Source: a bacterium (GTDB lineage Bacteria; Patescibacteriota; Patescibacteriia; Magasanikbacterales; GWA2-37-8). Taken from it: 58,235 bases of DNA. The translations under genes were made by a program, and so were the position numbers. Location of the stretch: positions 1 through 58,235 of the forward strand of contig JBDROJ010000042.1 in NCBI GenBank assembly GCA_043810165.1, written 5' to 3'. Position 1 is the stretch's first letter; the number at the start of each line of letters is the position of its first letter. The notes under the pieces were generated by a model that worked only from the letters and a program-made list of their open reading frames with translations, did no database searches and had not been told where the DNA came from. Below are positions 22,275 to 45,336 of the stretch, in pieces.

Positions 22275-24347
22275 ATGAGAAAGAATCTAGAACGGCTGAT
22301 CAAACTATTGGTATATTCCAGTTTTTTTGTACCATTGGTGGTAGTGCCAAGCTCATTTATTTTTCCTTTTATTGTACCAAAAGTTTTGTTGTTTAGGTCG
22401 CTGGTAACGATCATGCTGGTTGCATATATTTTGCTTTTAATCACAAATTGGCAAGCATATAAGCCTAAATTAACAGCTTTAAACATCACCTTGTTTGCTT
22501 TTTTGCTTAGTTTCACCATCTCTACTTTTGTGGGAACCGATCCGTACCATAGTTTTTGGGATAACCACGAACGCATGCTGGGTTTATTTACAATTTTTCA
22601 CTATATTGCTTATTATTTTATTTGCAGTTCAGTATTCAAAGAATGGAAAGAATGGAAGTGGGTTTTGCGAGTCTTTTTATTTGCCGGATCAATTGTAGCC
22701 ATAATTGGATTGGTACAGGTAATTAATCCGGAGTTTTTGCTGAACAAAGGGAGTATAAGAGTATCTAGCACATTGGGCAATGCAATTTACCTTGGAGGAT
22801 ATGGTCTGTTTTTAACGTTTCTTGCATTTTTGTTGTTTGTTAGAGATAACAATAAATATTGGAGAGTTGGGTATTTATTGATGGGGTTGTTATCTATTAC
22901 AGCCACATTTTATAGTGGTACGCGCGGTTCTATGCTGGGTCTATTAGCTGGAGTAGGAGTGCTTTTTATAGGTTATTTTATTATTTTGAAAGAACATAAA
23001 AAAACAAGAATTGCTCTTGGGGCAATTATCGTTCTGGGTATAATTTTGCTTGGAATTTTGTATGCTTACAGGCAGACAGATTTTGTGAAGAACATGCCGG
23101 CAGTTGGGCGCGCTATAAATACTTCTTGGACAGATGTGAAAAATACTCCTCGGTGGATAGCTTGGGAGATATCAATTGAGAGTTGGAAGGAAAGACCTGT
23201 TTTCGGCTGGGGACCGAATAATTATTTTTATGCCTTTAATCTTCATTATAATCCGCGTTCTTTAGAATACGGTTATGGCGAAACTTGGTTTGATAATGCT
23301 CATAATATAATAATGAATACTTTGGCAGTGCAAGGCGCTTTTGGTTTGATCGTTTACCTCTCAATTTTTGTTATTGCGTCCTTCACAATTTGGCAATTTG
23401 CAAGGAAGAAAGATATGAAACACAAGCATCTTTGTGTTGTGTCCATAGCTTTTTTAATGGCTCATCTTGTGCAGAATATAACAGTCTTTGAGAATATTAC
23501 TTCATATTTATATTTCATGTTATGGTTGGCTTTAATAAGTAGTATGGCTGGCAATAAACAGAAAAAAAATAGTGGAAAGACAGTTCCGGACAAACGTATT
23601 GGTTCAGCTTCTTTATTAATTTCCGCATTGGCGATTATACTAGTAATTTATGTTTTTAATATACAACCAGCCAAAGCAAACACTAGAACTTTGATAGCCA
23701 TGAGACTATTAAGCAGTAATCCGGCCAGTGCTTTTAGCCAATTACAACCAGTTTTAGAATCTTCTTCTCCTCATGTGGATGATATTAGATCTGATTTAGC
23801 CAGAACCGTGCATTCGTTAGTTTCGCAATATAGTAATCAAATAGGCAAAGAAGGCAGTCTGAAAGTATTAGATCAAGTTTATGATGCTTTGTATAAGAAT
23901 TTAGAACTTCATCCACTGGATATTCGTAATCATATGGTTTTATCACAAATCGCCCAGACTAAGGCTATTATTATACAAGATCCAGAATATGTTTTTGAGA
24001 GAGAAAAACTGATTGAAGATGCTCTTAAGAAATCTCCCAAGCGTCAGCAAATAATTTATGTCTTGGCCGAAACTAAAATAAGATTGAATAAAAAAGAAGA
24101 GGCCTTTAAATTGTTTGATCAGGCTCTTAGCGATAATCCTAGAATCGGGGAGACCTATTGGAGGATTGCCTATGCTCATATGTTATTTGGTGAATATGAC
24201 AAAGCTCAAGAAGCGCTTGATCTAGGATATAAGAATGGAGCCATTTTTACGGAAAATGACAAAAACGCAATTAAAGAATTATCCGCGTATCCTTCTTTTT
24301 CCGGAGTTTCGGTTGAGTCATCTGTGGTTGCTGAACCGGATAATTAA
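22275..24347 (+). CDS. O-antigen ligase (Wzy_C) family protein with C-terminal TPR-like region
   Basis: Multiple TMs, STLGNAIY, SGTRGS, FGWGPNNY, FDNAHN, helical repeat tail. Confidence 0.87.
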   Translation: MRKNLERLIKLLVYSSFFVPLVVVPSSFIFPFIVPKVLLFRSLVTIMLVAYILLLITNWQAYKPKLTALNITLFAFLLSFTISTFVGTDPYHSFWDNHERMLGLFTIFHYIAYYFICSSVFKEWKEWKWVLRVFLFAGSIVAIIGLVQVINPEFLLNKGSIRVSSTLGNAIYLGGYGLFLTFLAFLLFVRDNNKYWRVGYLLMGLLSITATFYSGTRGSMLGLLAGVGVLFIGYFIILKEHKKTRIALGAIIVLGIILLGILYAYRQTDFVKNMPAVGRAINTSWTDVKNTPRWIAWEISIESWKERPVFGWGPNNYFYAFNLHYNPRSLEYGYGETWFDNAHNIIMNTLAVQGAFGLIVYLSIFVIASFTIWQFARKKDMKHKHLCVVSIAFLMAHLVQNITVFENITSYLYFMLWLALISSMAGNKQKKNSGKTVPDKRIGSASLLISALAIILVIYVFNIQPAKANTRTLIAMRLLSSNPASAFSQLQPVLESSSPHVDDIRSDLARTVHSLVSQYSNQIGKEGSLKVLDQVYDALYKNLELHPLDIRNHMVLSQIAQTKAIIIQDPEYVFEREKLIEDALKKSPKRQQIIYVLAETKIRLNKKEEAFKLFDQALSDNPRIGETYWRIAYAHMLFGEYDKAQEALDLGYKNGAIFTENDKNAIKELSAYPSFSGVSVESSVVAEPDN

Positions 24348-24359
24348 TTAGTGTATTAT

Positions 24360-25415
24360 ATGAAAAAAGCTTTAATAACCGGTATTACCGGTCAAGATGG
24401 GTCATATCTGGCTGAATTGCTTTTGGAAAAAGGCTATGAAGTACATGGGATAATAAGGCGATCTAGTAGTTTTAGCACTGGCAGGATTGATCATATATAT
24501 CAGGATCCGCATGAGGAAAATTGTCGTTTGTTCTTGCATTATGGTGATTTAACTGATGGAAGTAATATTAGCCGTATATTAGAAAAAGTACAGCCCGATG
24601 AAGTGTATAATTTAGGTGCACAAAGTCATGTGAAGGTGAGTTTTGAAATACCAGTTTTTACAGCTAATACTGATGGGCTAGGTGCTTTAAGACTATTGGA
24701 TGCAATTAAAGACAAGGAAATGAAAGTTAAATTTTATCAAGCTGGATCTTCGGAAATGTTTGGCAAAGTTATGGAAACGCCTCAAAAAGAAACAACCCCT
24801 TTTTATCCTCGCAGTCCTTATGGTTGTGCTAAAGTATTTGCTCACTGGATGGCCATAAATTATCGTGAGGCCTATAACATGTTTGTTTGTAATGGTATTT
24901 TGTTTAATCACGAATCTCCTCGTCGTGGCGGAACTTTTGTCACAAAAAAAGTTACAAATGCTTTTGCCAATATTAAACTTGGCAAGCGTGATAAATTATT
25001 TATAGGTAATTTAGAGGCAAAGCGTGATTGGGGTTATGCAAAAGATTATGTGCAAGCTATGTGGTTGATGTTGCAACAGGATCAGCCAGACGACTATGTA
25101 GTAGCCACTGGAGAGAATCATAGCGTGCGCGAGTTTATCGAAGAAACAGCCAAATTATTGGACTATGAAATTGAATGGCAAGGTCAGGGCAAAGAAGAAA
25201 AGGGGATAGACAAAAAAACAGGCAAGGTATTGGTTGAAATTGATGATAAATATTATCGTCCTACAGAGGTGGATAATTTGTTGGGCGATCCTTCTAAAGC
25301 TAAGGAAAAATTAGGCTGGAAACCAAGTGTTGATTTTAAAGGCCTAATAAAATTGATGTTAGAAGCCGAATTTGAACGCGCTGGTTTTAAAGCCAATGAT
25401 TATATGGCTATTTAA
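24360..25415 (+). CDS. gmd: GDP-mannose 4,6-dehydratase
   Basis: [44 protein letters not shown]. Confidence 0.97.
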
Positions 25416-25426
25416 TCTTTTAATAT

Positions 25427-26374
25427 ATGGAAAAACAAGCAAAAATTTATGTGGCTGGACATAGAGGATTGGTAGGTTCGGCTTTGGTCAGAAAATTAAA
25501 AGGTGAAGGATATAATAATCTTATTTTAAAGACACATAAAGAACTAGATTTATTAGACCAACAAGCCGTGGCTGAATTTTTTGCTGAAGAAAAACCAGAA
25601 TATGTTTTTTTGGCAGCCGCCAAAGTCGGTGGAATCATGGCTAACAATACTTATCCTGCTCAGTTTATTTACGAAAATTTGCAAATTCAAAATAATATAA
25701 TCCATCAATCATATTTAAATAAAGTAGAGAAACTGTTATTTTTAGGCTCATCTTGTATTTATCCGCGTGAGTGTGCTCAACCCATGAAAGAGGAATATTT
25801 ACTTACCGGGATTTTAGAGCCCACCAATGAAGCATATTCTATAGCTAAAATAGCTGGTATAAAGATGTGCCAAAGCTATAATCGTCAATATGGAACAAAT
25901 TTTATCGCTGTTATGCCCGCTAATTTATATGGTCCGGGTGATAATTTTGATCTAAATAGTTCTCATGTGTTACCGGCTTTAATTCGCAAGTTTCATGAGG
26001 CCAAAGTTAATAAGAAGAAAGAAGTTGTAATATGGGGTACAGGCAATCAACGACGAGAGTTTCTGCACGTCCATGATGTCGCCAGCGGTTGTTTATTTTT
26101 GATGGACAATTTTAATCCGGATAAAGAACAAAATGAAGGAGGTAAAATATTTATGAACTTAGGATCCGGAGATGACGTATCTATAAGAGAATTGGCTGAA
26201 TTAATTAAAAATGTAGTCGGTTATCAGGGAGAGATTGTTTGGGATGCTAATAAGCCGGATGGTATGCCACGTAAATTGGTGAGTATAGAAAAAATTAGAG
26301 CAATAGGTTGGGTTCCCAAGATATCGTTGGAGGATGGAGTTAAGACAACCTATGATTATTTTAAAGAAAAGTAG
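25427..26374 (+). CDS. fcl: GDP-L-fucose synthase / ColC-like epimerase-reductase
   Basis: [39 protein letters not shown]. Confidence 0.95.
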
Positions 26375-26386
26375 TCAATTGTATAT

Positions 26387-27154
26387 ATGAAAGAAGGTAA
26401 ACAAGTAGATATATCTTCGGATTTTGAAACTAAAAAGACTAATTATTTTGCTCGTTTTGCCTATTCACATTTTGATTCTTTACAGCCTCACGAAAAAGGT
26501 GAGGTCTTGGGTCATAAAGGTGATCTCGAAATTTGGCGTAATGTTTCCGAACACTGTTTGGTTGCTAGCGTATTTGCTGATATTTTAGCTGAAGAATTAG
26601 GGTTAGAAAAAGAGCAACGAGAAGCGGTAGTAGAGGCAGCCATGTTACATGATTGGTTTAAAAAGTATGAGGTAAAGGCTATGGGTGTCGTTGAGAAAGA
26701 GGGAAAATTAGATTTAAGGAAGATGGAAGAAATTAAAAGAGAAGATCAACGTCTTTTGCAGGAAATGGGGATTCCAGAAGATATCATAAATTTAGCGGGT
26801 GCTAATATCCCAGAAACAACTCAAGGACCAAAGACTTTATCAGAAAAAATTATTTGGTATGTGGATGCTATGCTATCAGATACGGAGCCGGTGTCTATTG
26901 CCAAAAGATTTAAGGATTTGAAAATGGGTTGGGACGGGCAAAAGGAAAATCCTGAACGTGCTCGTAGAAATGCTGTTTTTAGCGACCTATACAAGGAAAG
27001 ATATGATGATAAATCATTATTTGAAGTACAACAAGAAGTAGGTGAGAAAATTGGAACAGAATTTAAGAGGTTGCTTAATTATACTGGTGAAGTTGATGAT
27101 CTACCATTTTTTTTGAAAGAAATACTAATAGAAAAAATAAATATCTCTAAATAA
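26387..27154 (+). CDS. HD-domain phosphohydrolase-like protein
   Basis: VSEHC...AAMLHDW...KIIWYVD. Confidence 0.75.
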   Translation: MKEGKQVDISSDFETKKTNYFARFAYSHFDSLQPHEKGEVLGHKGDLEIWRNVSEHCLVASVFADILAEELGLEKEQREAVVEAAMLHDWFKKYEVKAMGVVEKEGKLDLRKMEEIKREDQRLLQEMGIPEDIINLAGANIPETTQGPKTLSEKIIWYVDAMLSDTEPVSIAKRFKDLKMGWDGQKENPERARRNAVFSDLYKERYDDKSLFEVQQEVGEKIGTEFKRLLNYTGEVDDLPFFLKEILIEKINISK

Positions 27155-27159
27155 TTTTT

Positions 27160-28332
27160 ATGATAAAATTAATCAAATCTAGTTTTTACCAGGGTGACAT
27201 AATTAGAAAGAAATTGGCCGAGTTTATTTTAAGTTCAGACATGTTTAGTATGGGTCATTACTGTCAATTATTTGAAAAGAATTTTGCTGCCAAACAAGGT
27301 AGAGAATATGCAGTTTTTGTGTCTAGTGGCAGTATGGCTAATTTAATTTTGGTTCAGTCTTTCTTGAATGCTGGTTATTTAAAGAAAGGGGATAGGGTAG
27401 GCGTATCAGCTCTGACTTGGTCTACAAATATAATGCCCTTGATTCAACTTGGTTTGGAGCCGGTTTTATTGGATTGCGAATTACATAATTTGAATGTTTC
27501 TAAAAATATTTTAGCTAAGACTCATGAGGAGGTGCCACTTAAGGCATTGTTTATTACTAATGCTTTGGGTTTTTGTGCTGATTTAGATGAGATAGGTAAA
27601 TATTGCCAAGAAAATAATATATTATTACTCGAAGATAATTGTGAATCACTCGGGTCGAAAATGGCCGGTAAATTATTAGGAAATTTTGGCGTTGCCTCTA
27701 CTTTTTCAACATATATAGGTCATCATTTGTCCACTATTGAAGGTGGTGTAGTATGTACTGATAATAAGGAAATATATGAGATGTTACTACAGGTAAGGGC
27801 GCATGGTTGGGATAGGAATTTACCCATTGAATCACAAAATAGATTGCATAAACAGCATGATATAACTGATTTTAAATCAAAATATACATTTTATGACTTG
27901 GCGTATAACGGTAGGCCGACTGAAATTAATGGTTTTATAGGTAATATACAATTACAATATTGGGATGAAATCGTAGACAAGCGCTCTAGGAATTTCATGA
28001 GTTTTCAACAATTAAGCTTAGAAAATCAGGATTTATTACCGTTAGACGTCTCGCATATGGATTTAGTATCTAATTTTGCTATGCCACTTGTATTTAAAAC
28101 TCACGATTTAAGTGAAAAATACAAGTCCAATTTTCAAGAAGAAGGTGTAGAAATAAGGCCGGTAATAGCTGGAAATATAGGTAATCAGCCATTTTTTGAG
28201 AAGTATGTAGAACATACATATCCATGTCCAAACGCGGATTTAATAGAACAACAAGGTTTTTACTTTGGCAACAATCCAGAAATGACTGAACAAGAGATCG
28301 AAGCGTTGTGTAATTTAATATCTTGGCGTTAA
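27160..28332 (+). CDS. DegT-family PLP enzyme, ColD-like GDP-4-keto-6-deoxymannose 3-dehydratase
   Basis: VSSGSMAN, EDNCESLG, STYIGHHLSTIEGG (His where aminotransferases have Lys), RAHGW, RPVIAGN. Confidence 0.8.
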   Translation: MIKLIKSSFYQGDIIRKKLAEFILSSDMFSMGHYCQLFEKNFAAKQGREYAVFVSSGSMANLILVQSFLNAGYLKKGDRVGVSALTWSTNIMPLIQLGLEPVLLDCELHNLNVSKNILAKTHEEVPLKALFITNALGFCADLDEIGKYCQENNILLLEDNCESLGSKMAGKLLGNFGVASTFSTYIGHHLSTIEGGVVCTDNKEIYEMLLQVRAHGWDRNLPIESQNRLHKQHDITDFKSKYTFYDLAYNGRPTEINGFIGNIQLQYWDEIVDKRSRNFMSFQQLSLENQDLLPLDVSHMDLVSNFAMPLVFKTHDLSEKYKSNFQEEGVEIRPVIAGNIGNQPFFEKYVEHTYPCPNADLIEQQGFYFGNNPEMTEQEIEALCNLISWR

Positions 28333-28338
28333 TTAGAC

Positions 28339-28392
28339 TGTGGATAAGTAATTTATTTAGTTTTGACACCCAATGACCCTTTGTGGTATTAT
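28339..28392 (+). promoter_or_regulatory. Reverse DnaA box plus internal promoter
   Basis: TGTGGATAA at 28339-28347; TTGACA(28363)-18 nt-TATTAT. Confidence 0.55.
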
Positions 28393-28425
28393 ATGACATA
28401 TATTAATATGTCTTTTTTTAATAAT

Positions 28426-28671
28426 ATGTCTGAAATCAAACCAAATGAGGTATATACCACTGCTGAAGCCGAGAAATTGCTAAAAATAAGCAATAGCACA
28501 ATGAAAAGGATGCTAAAAAAGGGCTTAATTCGTGCTAACAAGATCGGAAAGCAATATCGTATTTTAGGTCATGAACTACTAAGATTATTATCACCAAAAG
28601 TAGATAAGAAGGCTACTAGCATGTATCAACGAGTGAAGACAAAAGTAAAAGATAAAACTGTGAATTGGTAA
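28426..28671 (+). CDS. Helix-turn-helix DNA-binding protein (excisionase/HTH_17-like)
   Basis: VYTTAEAEKLLKIS..TMKRMLKKG.IRANKIGKQYRI; start could be 28408 or 28426. Confidence 0.82.
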   Translation: MSEIKPNEVYTTAEAEKLLKISNSTMKRMLKKGLIRANKIGKQYRILGHELLRLLSPKVDKKATSMYQRVKTKVKDKTVNW

Positions 28672-28674
28672 TTT

Positions 28675-30216
28675 ATGGGAAACTTAGCCAATCGTACAAT
28701 TAAAAACTCGGTTTATTCATTTTCAGGTTTTGTTTGGATGTTGTTATTGTCATTTATAGCCATGCCCATTGTGATTAAAGGTTTGGGTTCTGAAAAATAT
28801 GGTTTTTTTGTCCTTTTAAATAGCATACTATCTGTATTTGGTTTGCTAGATCTTGGTATGGGTTATCCTTTTTTTAAAAAATTATCTGAAAATCCAGAAA
28901 ATCCAGACTACAAAGCCCTGACCCCCATTTTTAGCTTAACTTTTTGGTTTTATACTGCAGTGGGTTTATTTTGTTTGTTAATCTTGTTGTTGATAAGAGG
29001 TTTTTTACCAAATATCCTTAATTCAGCTGATGGTTTTGTCTATTCTTATACGTGGATGTTTCTGATGGTCGGTTTGACCTTTTTCTTGAAAATGATAGCT
29101 ATGCCACTGCAACAGATGTTACCAGCTCTGCAGAGAATTGACTTGTCCACCAAGATTAGCTTGATTAATATCACTCTCATCCAGATAGGTAGTATTGTTG
29201 TTGTAAGTATGGGGTATGGCATTACTTCTTTGGTGTTGATACAATTATCGTCAGCTTTTTTACTATTTTCTATCTATTTTATATTATGGAAAAAATTATT
29301 ACCGGGTATTAAACTAAAGTTATATTTTTCTTTTAAGCGTTTTAGATCAATGTTGAAGGATGGCTTTATGGTATTTATATCGAATTTTATGAGTAATATT
29401 CTTGCTCAATTTGATAAATTTGTCTTAAGTTTTTTTTGGGGCCCATCCAGTGTTTCATATTATTCTTCAGGACAAATGATTACAGACAAGATTCATAGTA
29501 CATCTTTTAGCCTTTCAACTGTTTTTACACCGGTATTTTCTAATATTGATCATTTAAAACAGGGTGATCGACAAATTAAAATATTTCGTAGAGCCATTAG
29601 ATTCATTTCCTTTATTACTTTTGGTTTGACCATAACAATTTTTTTGTATGGTAATTCTTTCATCAAATATTGGATTAATGAAGATTTTGCTATTAATACA
29701 GTTTTTGCTTTAAAGATATTAGCGTTCACTTATTTCATGTTGTCATTATTTGGTTTCATCTACGCTTTTTTAATTGGCATAAAGCGATTAAAATTTGTGG
29801 TATTTGCTACTACTTTGAATGCTCTATTAAACGTGACTTTTATATTTATCCTCATACCCCGTTTTTCTCTTAATGGCGCGGCTGTTGCTTACCTACTATC
29901 TACCATACCAGTATTTTATTACCTATATTATATCGAACACAATATTTTTCAAATTAAGAAAAAAATGGTTATTTTTAGGTTTTATTCCGTTTTACTGCTC
30001 AAGCTATTTACAGCTGGTGCTATAACATATATAATTTCTAGTACAGTGTTGTTTGCGTATGCCAATGCTTTGTGGAAAGTGGTTTTAATTGGCGGGTTTA
30101 CTCTAGGATTGTATTTTGTAATTTTCTATATTTGTAGATTTTTTGATAAAGAAGATTGGAATCTATTAAAAGATTATTTTTTTACAAGGTTCAAAAATAA
30201 ATTATTAAAAAATTAG
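28675..30216 (+). CDS. Oligosaccharide flippase (Wzx family)
   Basis: Polytopic, KNSVYS...LGSEKYG...DLGMG, DKFVLS...SVSYYS, LIPRFSLNGAA. Confidence 0.88.
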   Translation: MGNLANRTIKNSVYSFSGFVWMLLLSFIAMPIVIKGLGSEKYGFFVLLNSILSVFGLLDLGMGYPFFKKLSENPENPDYKALTPIFSLTFWFYTAVGLFCLLILLLIRGFLPNILNSADGFVYSYTWMFLMVGLTFFLKMIAMPLQQMLPALQRIDLSTKISLINITLIQIGSIVVVSMGYGITSLVLIQLSSAFLLFSIYFILWKKLLPGIKLKLYFSFKRFRSMLKDGFMVFISNFMSNILAQFDKFVLSFFWGPSSVSYYSSGQMITDKIHSTSFSLSTVFTPVFSNIDHLKQGDRQIKIFRRAIRFISFITFGLTITIFLYGNSFIKYWINEDFAINTVFALKILAFTYFMLSLFGFIYAFLIGIKRLKFVVFATTLNALLNVTFIFILIPRFSLNGAAVAYLLSTIPVFYYLYYIEHNIFQIKKKMVIFRFYSVLLLKLFTAGAITYIISSTVLFAYANALWKVVLIGGFTLGLYFVIFYICRFFDKEDWNLLKDYFFTRFKNKLLKN

Positions 30217-30221
30217 TCTAT

Positions 30222-30350
30222 ATGGAATATAGAGAAAAAACATTGGGTATTGAGCTGTATATAGATAGTTTAAAATCAAATTATACCAAGGTACCTACTT
30301 ATTCATTTGGCTCCGAAGGACATTGGGGCCTTGATTGCACTCGTTTATGA
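30222..30350 (+). CDS. 42-aa small ORF overlapping the rfbF start (small protein or remnant)
   Basis: MEYREKTLGIELYIDSLKSNYTKVPTYSFGSEGHWGLDCTRL; TGA overlaps the rfbF ATG (ATGA). Confidence 0.35.
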   Translation: MEYREKTLGIELYIDSLKSNYTKVPTYSFGSEGHWGLDCTRL

Positions 30351-31132
30351 AGACTATTATTTTATGTGGGGGTCAGGGTACAAGAATGAAAGAGGAAACT
30401 GATTTTAAACCCAAGCCATTGGTGTTGGTTGGGGGTAAGCCGATTTTATGGCATATAATGAAATTGTATTCGCATTATGGTTATAATGAGTTCGTTCTTG
30501 CTCTAGGCTATAAAGGGCATATGATTAAAGAATATTTTTTACGCTGGCAGTCAAGGATGAACGATTTTACCCTGCATACCAAAGAAAATAAAGTTATATT
30601 TCATAATAATGAATGTGATGATTTTAAGATTACTTTTGTCGAAACTGGATTAGAAAGTTTGACCGGAGAAAGAATTCTTAAATTAAGAGATCATATTACC
30701 GAGGATAATTTTATGGTTACTTATGGAGATGGTGTTGGCGATCTTGATATTAAAGGATTAGTAGATTTTCATAACCAACAAGATAGGTCGGGTACAATTA
30801 CCGCGGTTCACCCCAAGTCTAGATTTGGGTTGCTAGATATCGATCATGACAAAAAAGAACTAGTAGATTATTATCAACATCATGTCACACACGACATGGA
30901 TGAAAAATCTAAAGACTATATCAATGGTGGTTTTATGGTTTTTAAAAGAAAAGTATTAGATATGATTGAGCGAGATAGTATGATAGAGCATATTTTTGCA
31001 CCTTTAGCACAAAAACAAGACCTGTCAGTTTATGTTCATCCAGGTACATGGAAATGTATGGATACTTATAAAGAAGCAGAGGAAATGAATGAACTTTGGC
31101 AGAATGATCCATTTTGGAAAGTTTGGAATTAA
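30347..31132 (+). CDS. rfbF: Glucose-1-phosphate cytidylyltransferase
   Basis: ILCGGQGTRM..KPKPL..GGKPILWHIMK, TYGDG, INGGF, WKCMDT. Confidence 0.92.
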   Translation: MKTIILCGGQGTRMKEETDFKPKPLVLVGGKPILWHIMKLYSHYGYNEFVLALGYKGHMIKEYFLRWQSRMNDFTLHTKENKVIFHNNECDDFKITFVETGLESLTGERILKLRDHITEDNFMVTYGDGVGDLDIKGLVDFHNQQDRSGTITAVHPKSRFGLLDIDHDKKELVDYYQHHVTHDMDEKSKDYINGGFMVFKRKVLDMIERDSMIEHIFAPLAQKQDLSVYVHPGTWKCMDTYKEAEEMNELWQNDPFWKVWN

Positions 31133-31150
31133 TTTATCTAATCACAAATT

Positions 31151-31821
31151 ATGAAGATTAATGACCGTCTTAAATATCAGTTTCATCATCGATTAGCATA
31201 TATATATATATATCTTTATTGGCAAGAGATAAAATTACATATAGTCAGAATAAAGAAGATCAAATCTTGGATATATTAACTAATTTCAAAGACAAGGGGA
31301 CGTATATAGATGTAGGCGCTAATCATCCAGATATAATTAGCGTGACTAAAAAATTCTATGAACGTGGTTGGTCTGGTATAAATATTGAGCCTAATTATGA
31401 TAATTACATTTTTTTTGTAAACACTAGGTTGAGAGATATTAATTTAAATGTTGGCGTATCAGACAAAGAGGGGGAGCTAGATTTTTTTTACAAAGCAAAC
31501 GCAAGTGTTACCGATAGTACCGGATTCACATTTTCCAAGGATGTCTATGATGCAAGAAATTATAGTTTAGGATCAAAAAAGGTAAAAGTTATCCCTCTTA
31601 AGAAGGTGTTTGAAGAAAATAACATCAATTATGTTGATTTTATTAATATAGATACCGAAGGTTTTGAAAATAAAGTATTGGAGAGTAACGATTGGTTAGT
31701 TAATAGGGCGGGAGTATTGTGTATAGAGGGAAGAGGGTATGGAAAATTTTTGAAAAAATATGGATATAGGAAAGTTTTATTTGATGGTTCTAACAGTTTT
31801 TATAAGTTAAAAAATATATGA
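31151..31821 (+). CDS. FkbM family methyltransferase; ATG 31151 out of frame at an (AT)8 tract, or TTG start at 31219
   Basis: YSQNKED, YIDVGANHP, GINIEP, DFINIDTEG; removing one AT from 31198-31213 joins ATG 31151 to the main frame. Confidence 0.82.
31198..31213 (+). repeat. (AT)8 dinucleotide microsatellite
   Basis: GC-ATATATATATATATAT-CT. Confidence 0.92.
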
Positions 31822-32777
31822 ATAGTACAGAAAACAAAAAAATATTTGTTACCGGTGCTACTGGGTTAGTGGGCGCTCACTTGGTGGAAAGGCTTTTAGA
31901 GTTGGAACCGGCTCAAATAGTTTGTCTTTGTCGTAGTCAGGATCCGAGTTCGTATTTTTATTTAAAGGGTTTAGACAAGAAAGTGGTATTGGCTTATGGT
32001 GATTTGAAAGATAAAGAAAGGATATTTGATATCGTTAGCAAGTATGAAATAACTCATATATTTCATGTGGCCGCTCAAGCTATAGTGCCAACTGCCTATG
32101 TTAATCCTTATGAAACTTTATCCAGTAATATAATGGGCACAGTTCATATTTTGGAGGCCGCCCGACAGAGTGTTGGTATCGAGGCTGTGGTTGTCGCTTC
32201 TAGCGACAAAGCCTATGGTAAAAATTGCGACCGGGCTGTAGAGACTAATCCAATGGCCGGGGATCATCCATATGATGTTTCTAAATCCTGCACCGATCTG
32301 GTTAGCCTCTCTTATCACAAGACTTATGGCGTTCCGGTTGCGGTTAGTCGGTTTGGTAATATTTTTGGTCCTGGTGATTTAAATTTTAATCGTATAATTC
32401 CAGGTATCTGCCATTCTATTATAAAGGACCAAGTTTTGGAGTTGCGCAGTGACGGAAGTTTTGTTCGGGATTATGTTTATGTCAAAGATGTTGTAGATGG
32501 ATACATAAGTTTGGCAGAAAATATTGAGAAGAGCAAAGGCCAGGCTTTTAATTTTAGCACAGGTTATAATTTTTCCGTTTTAGACTTAATTAAAAAAGTT
32601 TCGGAAGTATTAGGCCAGCAGTGTGATTACAAGATAATTAATGACCAGAAAAATGAAATACCAGCTCAAAGTCTGGATTTTTCCAAAGCCACCGAAGTAT
32701 TAGGTTGGAAATCAAAATATGATTTTGAAGAGGGAGTTAAAGAGACGTATGAATGGTATAAAGGGTATTTAAAATAG
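31818..32777 (+). CDS. rfbG: CDP-glucose 4,6-dehydratase-like NAD-dependent epimerase/dehydratase
   Basis: VTGATGLVG, HVAAQA, ASSDKAYG, PYDVSK, NIFGPGD; close to rfbF. Confidence 0.78.
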   Translation: MNSTENKKIFVTGATGLVGAHLVERLLELEPAQIVCLCRSQDPSSYFYLKGLDKKVVLAYGDLKDKERIFDIVSKYEITHIFHVAAQAIVPTAYVNPYETLSSNIMGTVHILEAARQSVGIEAVVVASSDKAYGKNCDRAVETNPMAGDHPYDVSKSCTDLVSLSYHKTYGVPVAVSRFGNIFGPGDLNFNRIIPGICHSIIKDQVLELRSDGSFVRDYVYVKDVVDGYISLAENIEKSKGQAFNFSTGYNFSVLDLIKKVSEVLGQQCDYKIINDQKNEIPAQSLDFSKATEVLGWKSKYDFEEGVKETYEWYKGYLK

Positions 32778-32871
32778 TGAACTTTTTTGTTAAGAATACC
32801 ATCATCATTATTCTTCCTTTGTAAAATCGCTTACTTACTTATTTAATATTTAAATGTTAAAATAAAAAAAT

Positions 32872-33969
32872 ATGTTATCTCCACGAGAGCAATTAGAAGA
32901 GAAAAAAAGAGGTCATTTAAAAGACGAAAAGCCATATGTTTATGAAAAGATCATGAAGTCTGATGAAAAGGTTCGGAAAGGAGAGAGTATAGCTATTATT
33001 CAATTTCAATATAATTATACATGCAATTTTCTTTGTCAACATTGTTCTGTAAAGAAGTTCCAAGGAAAAAAAGACGCTCGACAATTTACCATGGAAGACG
33101 TAAGAAGTTTGTCGCGTCAAGCAGATGAATTGGGTCTGGCGCGTTTCGTGCTTACAGGTGGAGAACCCTTGATATTTAGAGACTTTGACGAACTAGTAGC
33201 TAATATTGACCCAGAAAAATTTTATATTAATTGTGATACCAATGGTTGGTTTTTGGATGATAAAAGAGCTAAACATTTAAAAAACATAGGAGTTGATCGT
33301 ATTCAATTAAGTGTAGATAGTTTAGACGCTAAAGAACATGATGATTTTAGGAAGGCTAAGGGTTCGTATGATAGAGCAATAAGAGCTATTGATGCGTCTC
33401 TCAATGCGGGGTTAGGTATTTTTGTTCAAACCGTAGTTACTAAACAAAGGCTTCATTCAGAGGAGTTTATTAAATTTGTAGAATATTTTAATAATAAAGG
33501 TATAGGGGTATTTGTAACTTATGCCAAACCAGTTGGAGCTTGGGAAGGTAATTTCGACTGTTTGGTTAACAGAGATGATATGGCTTATATGAACGAACTT
33601 GAAAAGAAATATGACCTCTGTACTCACTTAACCCCAGCTTATGGGCTTGATATGGGTTGTATTGCTGTAAAAGGAATGTTTTCTGTCACACAATACGGAG
33701 ATGTATTGCCATGCCCGTATATTCATACATCAATCGGCAATGTCTTTACCGAACCTTTGAAAGACATAATACAAAGAGGATTGGATATTAAGTATTTTGG
33801 GGAGTATGTTGATACTTGTTCAATCGCAGAGGATAGGGATTTTATTGATAAGTACGTTGCCGGTAGGATTTATGGAAAACCACTACCCGTCCCTTGTGCC
33901 GAGGTTTTCACCGAAGAAGATAAAACACAGAAGCCTTTTAATGAAGGTATGCCTAAACAAATTGACTAA
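32872..33969 (+). CDS. Radical SAM protein with SPASM/twitch domain
   Basis: CNFLCQHC, TGGEP, TNG, C..GDVLPC. Confidence 0.9.
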   Translation: MLSPREQLEEKKRGHLKDEKPYVYEKIMKSDEKVRKGESIAIIQFQYNYTCNFLCQHCSVKKFQGKKDARQFTMEDVRSLSRQADELGLARFVLTGGEPLIFRDFDELVANIDPEKFYINCDTNGWFLDDKRAKHLKNIGVDRIQLSVDSLDAKEHDDFRKAKGSYDRAIRAIDASLNAGLGIFVQTVVTKQRLHSEEFIKFVEYFNNKGIGVFVTYAKPVGAWEGNFDCLVNRDDMAYMNELEKKYDLCTHLTPAYGLDMGCIAVKGMFSVTQYGDVLPCPYIHTSIGNVFTEPLKDIIQRGLDIKYFGEYVDTCSIAEDRDFIDKYVAGRIYGKPLPVPCAEVFTEEDKTQKPFNEGMPKQID

Positions 33970-33978
33970 CAATAGTTT

Positions 33979-35001
33979 ATGAAAGCAAAAGATATTAGCG
34001 GTCAAGTTCCAGGCGGTAAAAGGGAAAATCTAGCAGAGGTTTTGCCTTTGGACACACCGTTTTTGTTGTATGTATTTCCTATTTATGCTTGTAATTTTAA
34101 ATGTAGATACTGCATTTTTTCAGTGGATAAGAAAGATCGTGGATTTATTTCTGATAAGACAGCTTTAGATTTGGATCTATATAAAAGATGCATAGATGAG
34201 GTGGCTGAATTCCCTAAAAAATTGAAAGTATTGCGTTTTGTTGGTATGGGTGAGCCTCTTTTACACAAAGATATTGCAAAAATGGTTGAATATGCCGTTT
34301 CAAAGAATGTGGCGGATACAGTGGAGATCATAACTAATGGTTCACTTTTGACACCCAAGATTTCAGATGATCTTATTTCTGCTGGTCTTTCTAGAATGAT
34401 AGTGTCTTTACAGGGAGTGACTAAGGAGAAGTACAAAGAAGTAAGTTCGGTGGATATTGATTTTGATAATTTCGTAAAAAATTTAAAGTATTTTTTTGAT
34501 AACAAAAAAAACACTACACATTTGTACATGAAAATAATGGATACAGCACTAGATAATGAAGATGACGAAAAGAGATTTCATGAAATTTTTGGAGATATAT
34601 GTGATACTATAGCAGTTGAGCATACTGTCCCCATTTATCCTGGTGTAGATTATGATAAAGTTTTGGGAGACAAAGATCGACCCGTTACCCAATTTGGTTT
34701 GCCGGTTTCAGAGGTTAAGATTTGTCCTCAACCTTTTTTTACTATGCAGATTAATCCTGACGGTAAAATAGTTCCGTGTTTTTCCCTTGATTATCCGGAA
34801 ATTATCGGTGATTGTAATAATCAGTCTATAAAAGAAATATGGAACAGTAAAAAATTTCATAATTTTAGACATCGTATGCTCAGTGGGGCTGAAAATGTAT
34901 GTAAAACTTGTGATAAATGTAATATAATTAAATATCGTTTATCTCCGGAGGATGTCTTAAATCATGACGCTGAGCGACTAAAGCAATTTTACAATGTTTA
35001 A
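33979..35001 (+). CDS. Radical SAM/SPASM protein
   Basis: CNFKCRYC, GEPLLH, TNGS, CPQPF..DGKIVPC..CKTCDKC. Confidence 0.9.
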   Translation: MKAKDISGQVPGGKRENLAEVLPLDTPFLLYVFPIYACNFKCRYCIFSVDKKDRGFISDKTALDLDLYKRCIDEVAEFPKKLKVLRFVGMGEPLLHKDIAKMVEYAVSKNVADTVEIITNGSLLTPKISDDLISAGLSRMIVSLQGVTKEKYKEVSSVDIDFDNFVKNLKYFFDNKKNTTHLYMKIMDTALDNEDDEKRFHEIFGDICDTIAVEHTVPIYPGVDYDKVLGDKDRPVTQFGLPVSEVKICPQPFFTMQINPDGKIVPCFSLDYPEIIGDCNNQSIKEIWNSKKFHNFRHRMLSGAENVCKTCDKCNIIKYRLSPEDVLNHDAERLKQFYNV

Positions 35002-35019
35002 ATAAAATAACGTAATTTT

Positions 35020-36009
35020 ATGAAAGCAAATTTTAAATCTCAAGTACATGAAGAACGATTAAAGCTAGGAGAAAATATACCATTGGCTACACCGTTAGTG
35101 GTTTATGTTGAGCCGTCTGGTTTTTGTAATTTAAAATGTGTTTTTTGTCCGCATGGTACAGATAGTGATGGATTAAAGAAAGATATTATGTCTTTCCAAA
35201 CTTTTAAGAAGATGGTAGATGATTTATCTGAATTTGAAGATAAAATTAGTTTATTGCGTGTTTGCGGTAACGGGGACCCACTAATGAGTAGAGAAATCAT
35301 AGAAATGATGAAATATGCAAAAGAATCGGGGTCGATAAGAAGGATTGAATTAATCACTAATGGCCTGTTGCTTAATACAAACTTGATTGAAAATCTACCC
35401 CAGTTTTTAGACAGAATTGTTATTTCTATTGAAGGCTTGTCTCCAGAGGATTATCTAAAAATTTGTAGTGTAAAAATGGATTTTCAGAAATCATTAGGAA
35501 ACCTTAAAGAATTGTATAAAAAAAGAAAAGATTGTTTAATGCATATTAAAATTCACAATGAAGCTGTAAAATCGGAAGATAAAAAGGAGGCGTTTTTTAG
35601 GGTTTTTAGTAATTACTGCGATGAGATATACATAGAAAATTTAGTCCCGTTGTGGCCCCAGCTCAATACTTCTCACTCCACTAGTAAGTTTAGATGGGGT
35701 GGGGGTAGAACCACTAGACGCCAGATTTGCGCACAAATATTTAAGAGTGTACAGGTTCAGGCCGATGGGGAAGTGGTGCCGTGTTGTGTTGATTGGAAAA
35801 GAATAAATGTAATAGGGAATATTAAAGAAGAATCACTTCTTGAAATATGGAAAGGAGAAAAACTTAGGAAATTACAAATTAGGCATTTGAGTGGTGATAA
35901 AATTAAAACTGAGCCATGTAAAGATTGTACCACGAATGACTATAGTGAAGTTGACAATATTGATTTATTTGCAGAGCAATGTATTCAAAAGATTAATGAA
36001 AAGATTTAA
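35020..36009 (+). CDS. Radical SAM/SPASM protein, apparent paralogue of the previous gene
   Basis: CNLKCVFC, GDPL, CAQIF..DGEVVPCC..CKDC; N-terminus resembles 33979. Confidence 0.9.
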   Translation: MKANFKSQVHEERLKLGENIPLATPLVVYVEPSGFCNLKCVFCPHGTDSDGLKKDIMSFQTFKKMVDDLSEFEDKISLLRVCGNGDPLMSREIIEMMKYAKESGSIRRIELITNGLLLNTNLIENLPQFLDRIVISIEGLSPEDYLKICSVKMDFQKSLGNLKELYKKRKDCLMHIKIHNEAVKSEDKKEAFFRVFSNYCDEIYIENLVPLWPQLNTSHSTSKFRWGGGRTTRRQICAQIFKSVQVQADGEVVPCCVDWKRINVIGNIKEESLLEIWKGEKLRKLQIRHLSGDKIKTEPCKDCTTNDYSEVDNIDLFAEQCIQKINEKI

Positions 36010-36161
36010 ATGTTACGAAGAAACAATTTCTTCAGATTTATATTGTCAATTGTGGTAAATAATAGCCATAAAGTATTCGTAGATCGTGAGACCGTTAATT
36101 ATAGTTTATTTTTCAAAGAAAATTTGCTTGATAATGCAAACAGGTTTAAGTAGTTAATTAA

Positions 36162-37334
36162 ATGATCAAAATTATGAATAGAGCATGCCCTATTTGTCTG
36201 AGTAATAATAAAAAACAACTTTATAAACAGAACTTTGGAAATCAGACTATTGCTCCAATGATTGGTTATAATATTGTGATATGTCAGGAATGTGGATTTG
36301 CTTATGCTGATAATATTCCATCACAAGAAAAGTTTGATGATTATTATACGGAGATGTCTAAGTATGAATTTAGTCATAGTGACGGAATTGTTGCAGAAAA
36401 ATATGTAAACCATTTTCAGAATATCGTTGATTTTTTAATTCCTTATCTCGCTAACAAAAAATCCAAGATAATAGATATTGGCTGTTCAACTGGTTGTTTG
36501 TTGTCACTATTAAAAAGTGAAGGATACTGCGATCTTACAGGATTAGATCCTTCACAGGCATGTGTAAAAACGGCTAAAGAGCTATATAATATAGATATTA
36601 TAAATGGTAGTATATCTGATTTAAACGATAGTAAGAAATATGATTTGGTTATTTTATCAGCTGTTCTAGAACATTTGGTTGATTTTGAAGGTTCATTGAA
36701 CAAGATCTGTTCTTCTTTGAATCATAATGGATTGATATTTATAGAAGTTCCTGATGCGCTTAGGTTTAGTTCGTATATAACGGCTCCTTTTCAGCAATTT
36801 AGCATTGAGCATATTAATTATTTTTCAAAATATTCGATTGCAAATTTATTATCAAAATATTCTTTTGAACTATTAAACGTGCTGGAAAACGTGAATTTAA
36901 CAAATGAGTTATCAGATCCCGATATTTTTGTTATGGCAAAAAAAGTAGATAATAGCAGTTTTAAAATTGAAAGAGATAATGTTAGTGAAATTAATTTGAA
37001 AGAATATATTAAAGCCAGTACCGAAATTGATTTGAAGATTAAAAAGATTATAAAAGAAAAATTGATAGATAAAGAAAAAATAATTATATGGGGTGTGGGT
37101 ACGCACACACAAAGACTTATTGGCTCTGGATTAGATTTAAAACAGGTAGCGTATTTTGTAGATTCGAACGAGAGATACTGTGGTAAAGAAATGAATGGAG
37201 TGAAAATAAAATCACCCAATGATATTAATGAAGACGTTCCAATTTTAATCTCGAGCTATTCATATCAAGATGAAATAAGTAAGCAGATCAGAGACGATCT
37301 AAAGTTAGATAATGAAATATTGAAATTATATTAA
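36162..37334 (+). CDS. Class I methyltransferase resembling NDP-sugar C-methyltransferases
   Basis: CPIC..CQECG Zn ribbon, IDIGCSTG, VLEH, EHINYF, C-terminal IIWGVG..YFVDSN domain. Confidence 0.8.
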   Translation: MIKIMNRACPICLSNNKKQLYKQNFGNQTIAPMIGYNIVICQECGFAYADNIPSQEKFDDYYTEMSKYEFSHSDGIVAEKYVNHFQNIVDFLIPYLANKKSKIIDIGCSTGCLLSLLKSEGYCDLTGLDPSQACVKTAKELYNIDIINGSISDLNDSKKYDLVILSAVLEHLVDFEGSLNKICSSLNHNGLIFIEVPDALRFSSYITAPFQQFSIEHINYFSKYSIANLLSKYSFELLNVLENVNLTNELSDPDIFVMAKKVDNSSFKIERDNVSEINLKEYIKASTEIDLKIKKIIKEKLIDKEKIIIWGVGTHTQRLIGSGLDLKQVAYFVDSNERYCGKEMNGVKIKSPNDINEDVPILISSYSYQDEISKQIRDDLKLDNEILKLY

Positions 37335-37343
37335 TCCTTTTTC

Positions 37344-38300
37344 ATGAAAAAAACAAAAATTGCCATTCTCGGTGCGACATCACATATAGCCAAAGGCTTA
37401 ATAAGTGTTTTTTTACAACGTGGCGATTTCGATTTACACTTATATGCTCGTTCATCAGAAAAGATATCTGATTTTTTAACTGGTTTGAAAAAAAAATCAA
37501 ATGACAACTTCACTATTCATGATGATTATGGTAATTTTTTAAAAATTCACTACGATGTTATTATCAATTGTGTAGGAGTAGGAACTTTGAAAAAAATACA
37601 AGGGGATTATACTAGATATTTCATGGTAACTGAAAAATATGACAATTTAGTAATTCAAAATTTGTGCGACGTTAATCCCGATACTCTTTATATCAGTTTT
37701 AGTAGTGGAGCTATATATGGCAGCGATTTTTCAGCACCATTTAAGGAAAATACGATTAATGGACTTAAAATAAATCATATAGATCCAAATAATTATTATG
37801 CTATATCTAGACTTAATGCCGAGAGCAAACACAGATCATTTAAAGACTTGAATATAGTTGATCTTAGAATTTTTTCATATTTTAGTAGGTTCGCTGATTT
37901 GGAAGATGGATATTTTATTACCGAACTTATAAACGCAGTTTCAGAAAAAAAAGTATTTAAGACTGATGATACAAATATTGTGCGCGACTACATAAGCCCG
38001 AAAGATCTATTCTCGATGATTTTAAAATGTATTGAGACAAAAAAAATTAATTCGGCTTTTGATGTGTTTAGCGCTAAGCCGGTTGAAAAGAAAGAAATTT
38101 TAGATTATTTTTCTGCGGAATTCAATTTAAAATATGAAGTAGATAATACATTATCATATACTGGCGCAACCGGTGCTAAGAATATTTATTATTCTACATA
38201 TGATAAAGCAATGAAAATTGGTTATAAGCCCGAGTTTAGTTCTCTAGATGTTATTAAACAAGAATCAAACTATATTTTAAATAAAAAAGTATATGGATAA
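37344..38300 (+). CDS. NAD-dependent epimerase/reductase (atypical SDR)
   Basis: ILGATSHIA, SFSSGAIYG, YAISR, RDYI. Confidence 0.8.
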   Translation: MKKTKIAILGATSHIAKGLISVFLQRGDFDLHLYARSSEKISDFLTGLKKKSNDNFTIHDDYGNFLKIHYDVIINCVGVGTLKKIQGDYTRYFMVTEKYDNLVIQNLCDVNPDTLYISFSSGAIYGSDFSAPFKENTINGLKINHIDPNNYYAISRLNAESKHRSFKDLNIVDLRIFSYFSRFADLEDGYFITELINAVSEKKVFKTDDTNIVRDYISPKDLFSMILKCIETKKINSAFDVFSAKPVEKKEILDYFSAEFNLKYEVDNTLSYTGATGAKNIYYSTYDKAMKIGYKPEFSSLDVIKQESNYILNKKVYG

Positions 38301-39825
38301 TGTTAACAAAATTTTCGACCAATCTATAGAATGTGAAATAAAGCCGTTGTTTATCTTTGATGTGGCTAATAATCACATGGGCGATGTGAATCATGGCCTA
38401 AAAATTATTAGAGATGTTCATTCTGCCTGCAAAGATTTTCCTTTTCAGCTTGCTTTTAAGTTTCAGTTTCGTAATATCGATACTTTCATTCATCCTGATT
38501 ATAAGGATCGTAAAGATATTAAATATGTAAAGCGTTTTTCTGAAACTAAATTAAGCAAGGAAGAATACATTGTTTTAAAAGAAGAAGTGTCTAATTTAGG
38601 ATGTATCTCTATGTGTACTCCTTTTGACGAACCTTCAGTAGATTTGATTGAAGAAATTGGTTTTGATATTTTAAAAATTGCCAGTTGTTCTTTTAATGAT
38701 TGGCCTCTTTTAGAAAAGGTGGCCACTAGTAGCAAGCCCGTTATAGCTTCAACTGGTGGGGTTGACCTAGAGGTCGTAGATCAAGTAGTTAGTTTCTTAC
38801 AAAATAGAGAGAAAAAATTTGTGATAATGCATTGTGTAGGAGAGTATCCTACTTCCAAAGATCATCTGCAGCTTAATCAGATAGATCTTTTGCAAGATAG
38901 ATATCAAGATGTAAAGATTGGTTTTTCTACTCATGAAGAACCGGATAATTATGATGCCATAAAAATGGTTGTTGCCAAAGGCGTTAGAATTTTTGAAAGG
39001 CATGTGGCCGTAAAAACTGAGAAGTATGATATTAATGCTTATTCTTCTACTCCGGAACATGCAGGTAAGTGGTTGGAGTCAGCTCAACAAGCTTTTGCCA
39101 TGGCAGGGGTGGCTGGCCAGAGAGCTGAGTTCTTAGAAAAAGAATTATCTGATCTACGGCAATTTAAGAGAGGGGTGTTCGCATCTAGGGATATCAACAA
39201 AGGAGAGCGCGTTAGCGTTGATAATACTTTTTTTGCTTTTCCAAACCAAGATGGCCAGATTTTGGCTAATAGCATGTCTAAATACGCTATTTATACTGCT
39301 ACCGAAGATATTAAAAAGAACGCTCCGATAAACGGTAATGTGGAAAAAGAAGAAACCAGAGAAAGAGTGTATAAAATTGTTGAGAAAGTGGATGAATTAT
39401 TAAAAAAAGCAAATATCCCTGTTTCCAGTAAATTGGATTTTGAGATATCACATCACTATGGCATTGATAAATTTTATGAATATGGGGCAGTAATAATTAG
39501 CTGTATTAACCGCGAATATTGTAAAAAATTAATTGTGTTATTGCCTGGTCAGAAGCACCCGGTTCATTTGCATAAGAAAAAGGAAGAGACTTTTCATGTC
39601 TTGTATGGAAGTATGGATATAACTTTGGGTGGTAAAGAAATGAAATGTGAGACCGGAGATATTGTTACAGTAGAGCGTGATACTGATCATGATTTTGGAA
39701 CTCAAGAAGGATGTATTTTTGAAGAAGTTTCCACTACCCATTACCAGGACGATTCGTTTTATCAAGATGAAAATGTGGCCAAGAATCCGAGCCGCAAGAC
39801 ACATTTAAGTCATTGGTTGGATTAA
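38293..39825 (+). CDS. NeuB/SpsE-family PEP-dependent synthase fused to SAF and cupin domains
   Basis: ANNHMG, KFQ, TPFD, KIAS, HCVGEYP, GFSTHE, ERH; C-terminal YCKKL..PGQKHPVHLHKKKEETF. Confidence 0.88.
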   Translation: MDNVNKIFDQSIECEIKPLFIFDVANNHMGDVNHGLKIIRDVHSACKDFPFQLAFKFQFRNIDTFIHPDYKDRKDIKYVKRFSETKLSKEEYIVLKEEVSNLGCISMCTPFDEPSVDLIEEIGFDILKIASCSFNDWPLLEKVATSSKPVIASTGGVDLEVVDQVVSFLQNREKKFVIMHCVGEYPTSKDHLQLNQIDLLQDRYQDVKIGFSTHEEPDNYDAIKMVVAKGVRIFERHVAVKTEKYDINAYSSTPEHAGKWLESAQQAFAMAGVAGQRAEFLEKELSDLRQFKRGVFASRDINKGERVSVDNTFFAFPNQDGQILANSMSKYAIYTATEDIKKNAPINGNVEKEETRERVYKIVEKVDELLKKANIPVSSKLDFEISHHYGIDKFYEYGAVIISCINREYCKKLIVLLPGQKHPVHLHKKKEETFHVLYGSMDITLGGKEMKCETGDIVTVERDTDHDFGTQEGCIFEEVSTTHYQDDSFYQDENVAKNPSRKTHLSHWLD

Positions 39826-39844
39826 ATTTTCATAATATAGATCC

Positions 39845-40747: not shown

Positions 40748-40751
40748 CACT

Positions 40752-42416: not shown

Positions 42417-42637
42417 TAAATTAGTTCTGTCACTGCGAACGTAGCGTTTTCTGTCATTGCGAGGAGCGAGGCGTTTTCTGTCATTGCGAGCGTAAGCGAA
42501 GCAATCTCGTCATCTCTAGAGCAACGAGATTGCCACGTCGTCGCTCCGCTCCTCGCTCGCAATGACAGAAATGCCACGCTCGCAATGACAGAAACAACAC
42601 ATTCTTCGCTTACGCTCGCATTGACAGAACTAATTTA
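42417..42637. repeat. Nested palindromic REP/BIME-like element
   Basis: Perfect 16-bp terminal IR TAAATTAGTTCTGTCA/TGACAGAACTAATTTA; three forward CTGTCAYTGCGA and three reverse CGCAWTGACAG units; inner stem GCAATCTCGT/ACGAGATTGC. Confidence 0.93.
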
Positions 42638-42690
42638 AGCTCAATATTGATAATAACTTAATACTAGTTTAAACATTAATTTTAAGTCAT

Positions 42691-43203: not shown

Positions 43204-43206
43204 TCT

Positions 43207-44010: not shown

Positions 44011-44020
44011 AAAACATTTT

Positions 44021-45322: not shown

Positions 45323-45336
45323 AATAATTAAAATAT

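Follow-up and report, generated by a model that had tools for sequence, protein, structure and literature searches.

One Extra AT Unit Places an Otherwise Intact FkbM-Family Gene Out of Frame in an Assembled Patescibacterial Genome

The window analysed here, a stretch of 58,235 nucleotides from an assembled genome of the Patescibacteriota (Magasanikbacterales; GenBank assembly GCA_043810165.1, contig JBDROJ010000042.1), carries a gene of the FkbM methyltransferase family that is switched OFF by a single AT unit at its true 5' end, a state which is well supported by comparison with homologous proteins. In the reading favoured here, to which a probability of about one half may be assigned, the extra unit stems from a real slip by one unit within a tract that is by nature reversible, and the otherwise intact gene is OFF as assembled. 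Phase variation of this gene is a reasonable but unproven mechanistic expectation. The genome comprises 1,002,554 bases in 47 contigs, with a G+C content of 37% and a completeness of 93%, and the features of the window that are relevant to this analysis are given in Table 1.

Table 1. Coordinates of the features discussed (positions in the window)
Feature	Position	Strand	Basis or remark
Whole FkbM-family methyltransferase gene	31151..31821	+	ATG to stop, as homologues define the gene
42-codon ORF as assembled	31151..31279	+	ORF list
(AT)8 tract, site of the frameshift	31198..31213	none	Direct reading and repeat scan
200-aa ORF from TTG, holding the FkbM domain	31219..31821	+	Different frame from ATG 31151
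Glycan cluster on one strand, about 25 kb	22275..47596	+	Pfam matches, ORF reading
Sugar-1-phosphate nucleotidylyltransferase (PF00483), upstream gene	30335..31132	+	Pfam
NDP-sugar 4,6-dehydratase/epimerase (PF16363, PF01370), downstream gene	31818..32777	+	Pfam

Reading Frames across the Tract

An uninterrupted AT run of 16 bases, that is (AT)8, was located in the 5' part of the gene by reading of the sequence and by a repeat-finding script, and a +2 frameshift within this run breaks the gene. The ORF that begins at ATG 31151 reads through the tract and ends after 42 codons at a TAA (31277-31279); approximately its first 20 codons encode a conserved N-terminal helix (K-Y-Q-F-H-H-R-L-A-Y-I-Y-I), and the remainder is an out-of-frame tail. 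The FkbM domain is found in another frame, which is open from 31174 (the preceding stop occupies 31171-31173) and in which TTG 31219 is the first ATG, GTG or TTG codon. The earlier note on this DNA had described this arrangement, including the (AT)8 tract, the stop after 42 codons and the domain in a second frame from a TTG, and its description proved exact by the sequence, the ORF list and Pfam.

Removal of one AT unit would join the two halves into a protein of 222 aa. When the number of AT units was changed computationally from 3 to 12, with the rest of the sequence left as it is, full-length products from ATG 31151 were obtained at (AT)4 (220 aa), (AT)7 (222 aa) and (AT)10 (224 aa), the last two of which had already been expected to read into the FkbM frame. 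All other lengths, namely 3, 5, 6, 8, 9, 11 and 12 units, led to an early stop and to products of 23-44 aa. By this computation, the gain or loss of units toggles the gene between a full-length and a truncated product. In the ancestral frame the (AT)8 tract covers codons 16-21, and it is a perfect repeat in the 5' coding region with a unit that is not a multiple of three.

It has to be considered whether the gene is functional as assembled, with translation from TTG 31219, or from a different codon of its frame, yielding an active enzyme of 200 aa that lacks the N-terminal helix, and the 42-codon ORF being a leftover or a leader. The whole Pfam domain is contained in the 200-aa ORF, which speaks for such a start. 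The TTG had also been held to lack a Shine-Dalgarno sequence; its position as the first start of the frame stood, whereas the missing sequence turned out to be uninformative. Of the 26 starts that were read in the cluster, only 3 are preceded by even a weak Shine-Dalgarno-like word, and because such words are rare throughout the cluster, their lack at the TTG does not separate the two starts and does not speak against the TTG. On the other hand, 23 of these 26 start codons are ATG, and ribosomes translating the overlapping 42-codon ORF would pass through the TTG. Together with the conservation of the N-terminal segment described below, these observations make an active product from the TTG very unlikely.

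Conservation of the Gene Start among Homologues

A protein search of a set of 5.8 billion clusters yielded 388 matches with E <= 0.001 among 573 candidates, the best 120 of which were considered. The source's own gene call, as retrieved by this search, is 184 aa in length. The closest relatives among the matches listed show 62-69% identity and have 221-231 aa, approximately 22-30 residues more than the ORF from the TTG. The records of the nearest homologues are named Magasanikbacteria and other Patescibacteria, in agreement with the suggestion in the earlier note of an organism like those of the candidate phyla radiation (CPR).

The ATG-frame peptide followed by the FkbM-frame ORF matches these homologues (221-231 aa) in a colinear manner. 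Their N-terminus, with the pattern [KR]-Y-Q-F-x-H-R-x-A-[FY]-[LI]-[YF]-[VI], corresponds to the peptide encoded from ATG 31151. An extension matching this peptide, for which the earlier note had proposed that homologues be inspected, is present in 10 of the 11 close homologues aligned, and six residues (Y8, Q9, F10, H12, R13, and A15) are invariant across the seven closest. A segment of about 20 residues at the N-terminus is also found in more distant subfamilies (L003, L004, and L013 among them). Each of these observations argues against a TTG start. Homologues that begin at the position equivalent to the TTG, which had been put forward as the contrary outcome, were not found, with the exception of P0004. 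This protein, called at 204 aa, begins at about that position and is the one homologue that favours the TTG start, and its nearest relatives (83-90% identical) possess the N-terminal helix. P0004 may represent either a second 5'-disrupted allele or an effect of gene calling, and a short form of the enzyme, as in this call, may exist.

The comparison also indicates the number of AT units that the gene should have. In the (AT)7 product, the 26 residues before N-K-E-D are identical at 13-16 positions, without gaps, to each of 10 homologues, and the spacing from Y-Q-F to N-K-E-D is 24 residues in the (AT)7 reading as well as in P0002 and P0005, the two homologues in which it was counted. The (AT)4 and (AT)10 readings restore the frame with two residues fewer and two residues more, respectively. 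Since (AT)7 is exactly colinear with the homologues, the gene appears to be intact but for one extra AT unit. No further lesion was seen in either half of the gene, and conserved residues are kept on both sides of the single +2 shift, implying that the break is recent. Thus, ATG 31151 is supported, by sequence comparison, as the probable ancestral start.

A total of 16 homologous loci were read at the nucleotide level. All of them are open in a single frame and none shows a two-frame organisation, which weighs against recoding, that is, a ribosomal +2/-1 shift or transcriptional slippage on (AT)8 by which some full-length enzyme would be made from the assembled sequence. The two-base period of the tract would allow a tRNA reading AUA or UAU to re-pair perfectly after a +2 shift, and it might be speculated that, without MutS and MutL, the tract is retained for such a use. 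However, the motifs known from programmed shifts and from transcript slippage are different ones, and recoding at this locus appears extremely unlikely. In the same set, none of the 10 loci with the Y-Q-F-x-H-R motif has a dinucleotide run of more than three units in its first 240 bases.

The gene is patchily distributed, with a match in 5 of 61 genomes (the source genome included), and one of two genomes of the same genus has no match. Accessory glycan genes are often lost, and this patchiness, the lack of the tract in orthologues and its occurrence as the only such locus in the genome could all be accommodated by a fixed young pseudogene, in which a real slip would have hit a gene on its way to loss, with no part for reversion and no ON cells. 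Such a state is nevertheless improbable, given that neither half carries a second lesion and that an (AT)8 tract in the absence of MutS and MutL should revert often, which would make a fixed state hard to distinguish mechanistically from a switch.

A side observation concerns the same interval in a relative. A contig of 1250 bases from one sequencing run (X2), belonging to an organism about 80% alike, joins position 31126 to 32448 and thereby skips 1321 bases, so that the end of the nucleotidylyltransferase gene is linked to the 3' part of the dehydratase gene. At such a low likeness, this contig gives a weak hint that the relative may lack the methyltransferase.

Domain Assignment and Predicted Structure

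Within the 200-aa ORF, Pfam family PF05050 (Methyltransf_21, FkbM) was matched at residues 31-166 with an E value of 1.1e-20 and 74.9 bits, the cut-off being 22.7. The ORF also contains the motif Y-I-D-V-G-A-N-H-P, in which D52, G54, A55, and N56 are at least 90% conserved in homologues; this glycine-rich loop after the first strand is presumably the SAM-binding site.

Structural information was obtained from an AlphaFold2 model of the homologue P0002 (68% identical to the protein of the window), which was based on an alignment of 42 sequences and reached a mean pLDDT of 93.5 and a pTM of 0.91. In this model a helix extends over residues 6-22, with a block pLDDT of 94-95 beyond the first ten residues; the AT tract falls inside the helix, and the TTG start lies just past it. 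Because the helix is both conserved and confidently modelled, the product of a TTG start would lack a structured, conserved element, and the model suggests that it would be impaired or inactive.

The best fold match of the P0002 model in the PDB was 2py6, annotated as 'Methyltransferase FkbM' (E 4.1e-05, TM 0.46), in line with a class I (Rossmann-like) methyltransferase fold. The protein thus resembles the FkbM family and 2py6 in its domain match, which is well above the cut-off, and in the fold of a close homologue, but differs from the solved FkbM proteins in that a profile search of the sequences of solved structures gave no match at E <= 0.001. According to the domain, fold and motif tests, it is a putative FkbM-family sugar or glycan methyltransferase with a predicted methyl-transfer activity. 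We know of no characterised member for the short form of about 222 aa with an N-terminal helix and an S-Q-N-K-E-D segment.

Glycan Cluster and Neighbouring Genes

The earlier note had taken the gene for a glycan gene, and it lies within a large cluster of such genes on one strand. The cluster contains a Wzy_C/O-antigen-ligase-like protein, a GDP-mannose dehydratase, epimerases, two DegT aminotransferases, a Wzx-type flippase, three radical SAM/SPASM proteins, a class I methyltransferase, a NeuB-cupin protein, a HAD phosphatase, a TPP enzyme, and an RmlD-GT2 fusion. From this context, the substrate of the methyltransferase is probably a sugar of a surface glycan. Apart from the FkbM gene, every gene that was read in the 25-kb cluster is unbroken. 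An alternative genetic code was considered and dropped, since every gene of the cluster is open under table 11.

The immediate neighbourhood is partly retained in relatives. Three distinct related contigs, L011 (identical to L002 and L086), L012, and L014 (identical to L087), retain the upstream nucleotidylyltransferase at 67% identity, and in all three the methyltransferase is flanked by both types of neighbour. The downstream gene of the dehydratase type is 66% identical in L014 and only 30-32% identical in L011 and L012. At five loci of the P0003 type these neighbours were not seen. The start codon of the dehydratase gene overlaps the stop codon of the methyltransferase gene (ATGA), and as a consequence the early stop might also reduce translation of the downstream gene.

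Several other features of this region may be recorded. Three consecutive radical SAM/SPASM genes (365, 340, and 329 aa; 32872-36009) are located directly 3' of the dehydratase gene and are followed by the class I methyltransferase (36162-37334), a density of radical SAM genes that is unusual for a glycan cluster. An (A)9 run at 37488-37496, in the 5' sixth of an epimerase-family gene (37344-38300), is in frame as assembled and potentially slippery. Two fusion proteins were noted, one of a NeuB-like synthase with a C-terminal cupin domain (38293-39825) and one of an RmlD-type reductase with a family 2 glycosyltransferase (45749-47596). Just upstream of the Wzy_C/TPR protein, an ORF of 1226 aa (18481-22161), whose sole Pfam match is the Lamin Tail Domain, possibly encodes a large surface protein.

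Rarity of the Tract and Apparent Absence of Mismatch Repair Genes

Apart from the (AT)8 tract, the 1,002,554 bases of the genome contain no dinucleotide repeat of six or more units, and 12 repeats have five units. Runs of alternating A and T comprise nine of 10 bases, one of 11 and the one of 16 in the methyltransferase gene, and an order-3 Markov model of the genome predicts 0.09 runs of at least 14 bases and 0.008 runs of at least 16 bases per genome. A tract of (AT)7 or longer was found in 3 of 60 related genomes, none of the three lying within a glycan gene. With such a frequency among relatives, the occurrence of one (AT)7 tract in a genome is uncommon but not far from what chance would give. 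Four other Y-I-Y-I or I-Y-I-Y peptides occur in the long frames of the source genome, and none of them is encoded as an unbroken AT run. Across the family as a whole, the origin of an (AT)7 run through the choice of codons for Y-I-Y-I may be seen as an accident that is rare but to be expected. What appears special about the tract is that it sits within a conserved coding helix and is one unit out of frame.

The earlier note had also proposed a scan of other glycan genes for simple sequence repeats (SSRs). In a heuristic scan of 58 SSRs in the genome, no other gene was visibly split by an SSR, and the six flagged cases that were read by eye are intergenic, located just before starts, or in frame.

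The three tracts of at least seven AT units in relatives, and two other repeats of the source genome, deserve mention in their own right. At L167:1501-1514 (G022), (AT)7 fills the spacer from a GGAGGA word to the ATG of a small ORF, which we take to be of the Hsp20 type, and changes in the length of this tract would alter the spacing between the two. The tract at L168:1501-1526 (G023), with 13 AT units, is the longest in the 61 genomes and lies near the 5' end of a 319-aa frame on the minus strand, and the third tract is intergenic. In the source genome, (TCC)13, (TCTTCC)5 and (TCCTCT)5 form an in-frame low-complexity region (G000:C23:2577-2699) near the C-terminal end of an 817-aa frame on the minus strand. 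The only G/C homopolymer of nine bases (G000:C40:3752-3760) is located on a contig of 4.3 kb, has no long frame across it, and may belong to a mis-binned contig.

Dinucleotide tracts slip more often in cells without mismatch repair. The MutS_V domain (PF00488) was found neither in the source genome (93% complete) nor in any of 36 genomes of the same family, some of which consist of a single contig; it was detected in 2 of the 61 genomes overall and in 11 of 14 control genomes. MutL (PF01119) was likewise not found in the source genome at its 93% completeness. For NucS, which could provide another route of mismatch repair, there was only a sub-threshold match (21.3 bits against a cut-off of 24) over 41 positions of a 136-aa frame (12765-12884), which probably encodes an unrelated small protein with a nuclease fold. 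The lineage therefore appears to lack MutS and MutL, a background that would favour slippage. A published survey of Saccharibacteria, another CPR group, likewise reports neither MutS nor MutL in the portion of the article available (PMC8406219).

Support for the Extra Unit in the Assembly

The main competitor of a real slip is an artefact of assembly or consensus, according to which the organism has (AT)7 and an intact gene for a 222-aa enzyme, and the eighth unit is due to stutter of the polymerase when the library was prepared or to a wrong consensus at a site of low coverage or mixed sequence. This is a possibility to be taken seriously, albeit the less likely one. One unit alone separates the assembly from a perfectly colinear gene, both halves of which are otherwise undamaged, and dinucleotide repeats are known sites of stutter. 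Moreover, no independent assembly or read among the data searched confirms (AT)8. Among the matches listed from the 5.8-billion-cluster search, there was no second assembly with the gene, the next-best protein being 69% identical, and these matches include no ON allele and no further OFF allele.

Sequencing runs that hold parts of the stretch were found to be shallow, with shares of sampled words of 0.14 and 0.06 (0.00 in a third run) and a depth of 2-4 on the identical pieces. They include identical short contigs at 30991-31163 and 32560-32735 (run X1) and at 31384-31534 (run X2); among the pieces listed from these two runs, none crosses the (AT)8 tract, the nearest identical piece ending at 31163.

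Against an artefact, the genome has 33 homopolymers of 9-10 bases, and not one of them interrupts a long frame (three flagged ones were read by eye); moreover, the genes of the 25-kb cluster are intact, which indicates that the assembly is not generally prone to insertions and deletions. In addition, a repeat of 16 bases is shorter than the usual assembly k-mers and reads, and spanning reads should be able to resolve it. Overall, the extra AT unit is more likely to be real than to be an assembly error.

Origin and Possible Role of the Tract

The favoured reading, a real slip in a reversible tract, may be put as a sequence of steps. The codons TAT ATA TAT ATA, used for the conserved helix residues Y-I-Y-I, would have created an (AT)7 run, to which slipped-strand mispairing during replication would have added one AT unit. 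Ribosomes starting at ATG 31151 would then stop after 42 codons, and the enzyme would be OFF in the assembled genotype. The same slippage would be expected to restore (AT)7 at a raised rate, because the tract is a perfect dinucleotide repeat and MutS and MutL were not found. Mechanically, such a locus would be a stochastic on/off switch, whether or not it is selected for.

A stronger proposal is that the tract constitutes a contingency locus of a CPR/Patescibacteria-type episymbiont, in which cells flip a glycan methyl group by AT slippage. In this case the missing MutS and MutL would help the flipping, and the surface seen by phages or by the host cell would be varied. The phase-variable switch of the earlier note is upheld as far as the 5' coding repeat, the toggling of the frame and the absence of MutS and MutL from the genes found are concerned, but not with regard to an ON allele, which is not on record, or to the tract, which is not conserved. 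Conservation of the tract in orthologues, a record of both alleles and the presence of several loci per genome are all lacking, whereas classical phase-variable genomes carry many such loci, and eight units are short for a dinucleotide switch. A contingency locus is therefore doubtful, and the tract is more likely to be an accidental hypermutable site than a switch shaped by selection.

The consequences differ among these explanations. A true contingency locus would represent the first description of phase variation by simple repeats in the CPR. If the extra unit is real and variable, ultra-small uncultivated CPR bacteria would share with host-adapted pathogens a cheap stochastic switch of surface glycans, which would bear on how these bacteria cope with phages and attach to host cells and would give the loss of MutS and MutL in these lineages a functional consequence. 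Should the eighth unit prove to be an assembly error, the enzyme would in truth have 222 aa and the public gene call of 184 aa would be incorrect.

Relation to Known Phase-Variable Systems

In Helicobacter and Haemophilus, dinucleotide tracts in or before genes for surface structures shift the reading frame or the promoter spacing by slippage, and strains share the site of such a tract but differ in its length. The locus of the window differs from them in that its orthologues are without the tract and only a single strain is known.

Within the CPR, the phase-variation literature that includes Saccharibacteria provided a case of in-frame repeats and not an on/off tract, namely a hypervariable, surface-related repeat gene of Gracilibacterium, for which slipped-strand mispairing is discussed in the available part of the article (PMC6851277). 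As far as this part goes, the Gracilibacterium gene has an in-frame array of 9-base repeats encoding a P-T-D peptide repeat, whereas the tract of the window is a frame-shifting one of the on/off type. A search of full-text literature on phase variation in Patescibacteria or the candidate phyla radiation returned titles on other subjects.

The closest parallel is offered by Campylobacter jejuni, which is without classical mismatch repair. According to the parts of the article available, its cj1426 gene encodes a phase-variable capsule 6-O-methyltransferase with a polyG tract, ON at 10 G and OFF at 11 G, and is one of six polyG genes in the cluster; switching was shown by sequencing and NMR, and the methyl group alters phage sensitivity (PMC3417653). 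Unlike this G homopolymer, which is one of six, the tract of the window is an AT dinucleotide repeat at the sole such locus, with only one length on record. Like cj1426, however, the gene encodes a predicted sugar methyltransferase within a surface-polysaccharide cluster, and a change of one unit in an intragenic simple repeat would be sufficient to toggle it.
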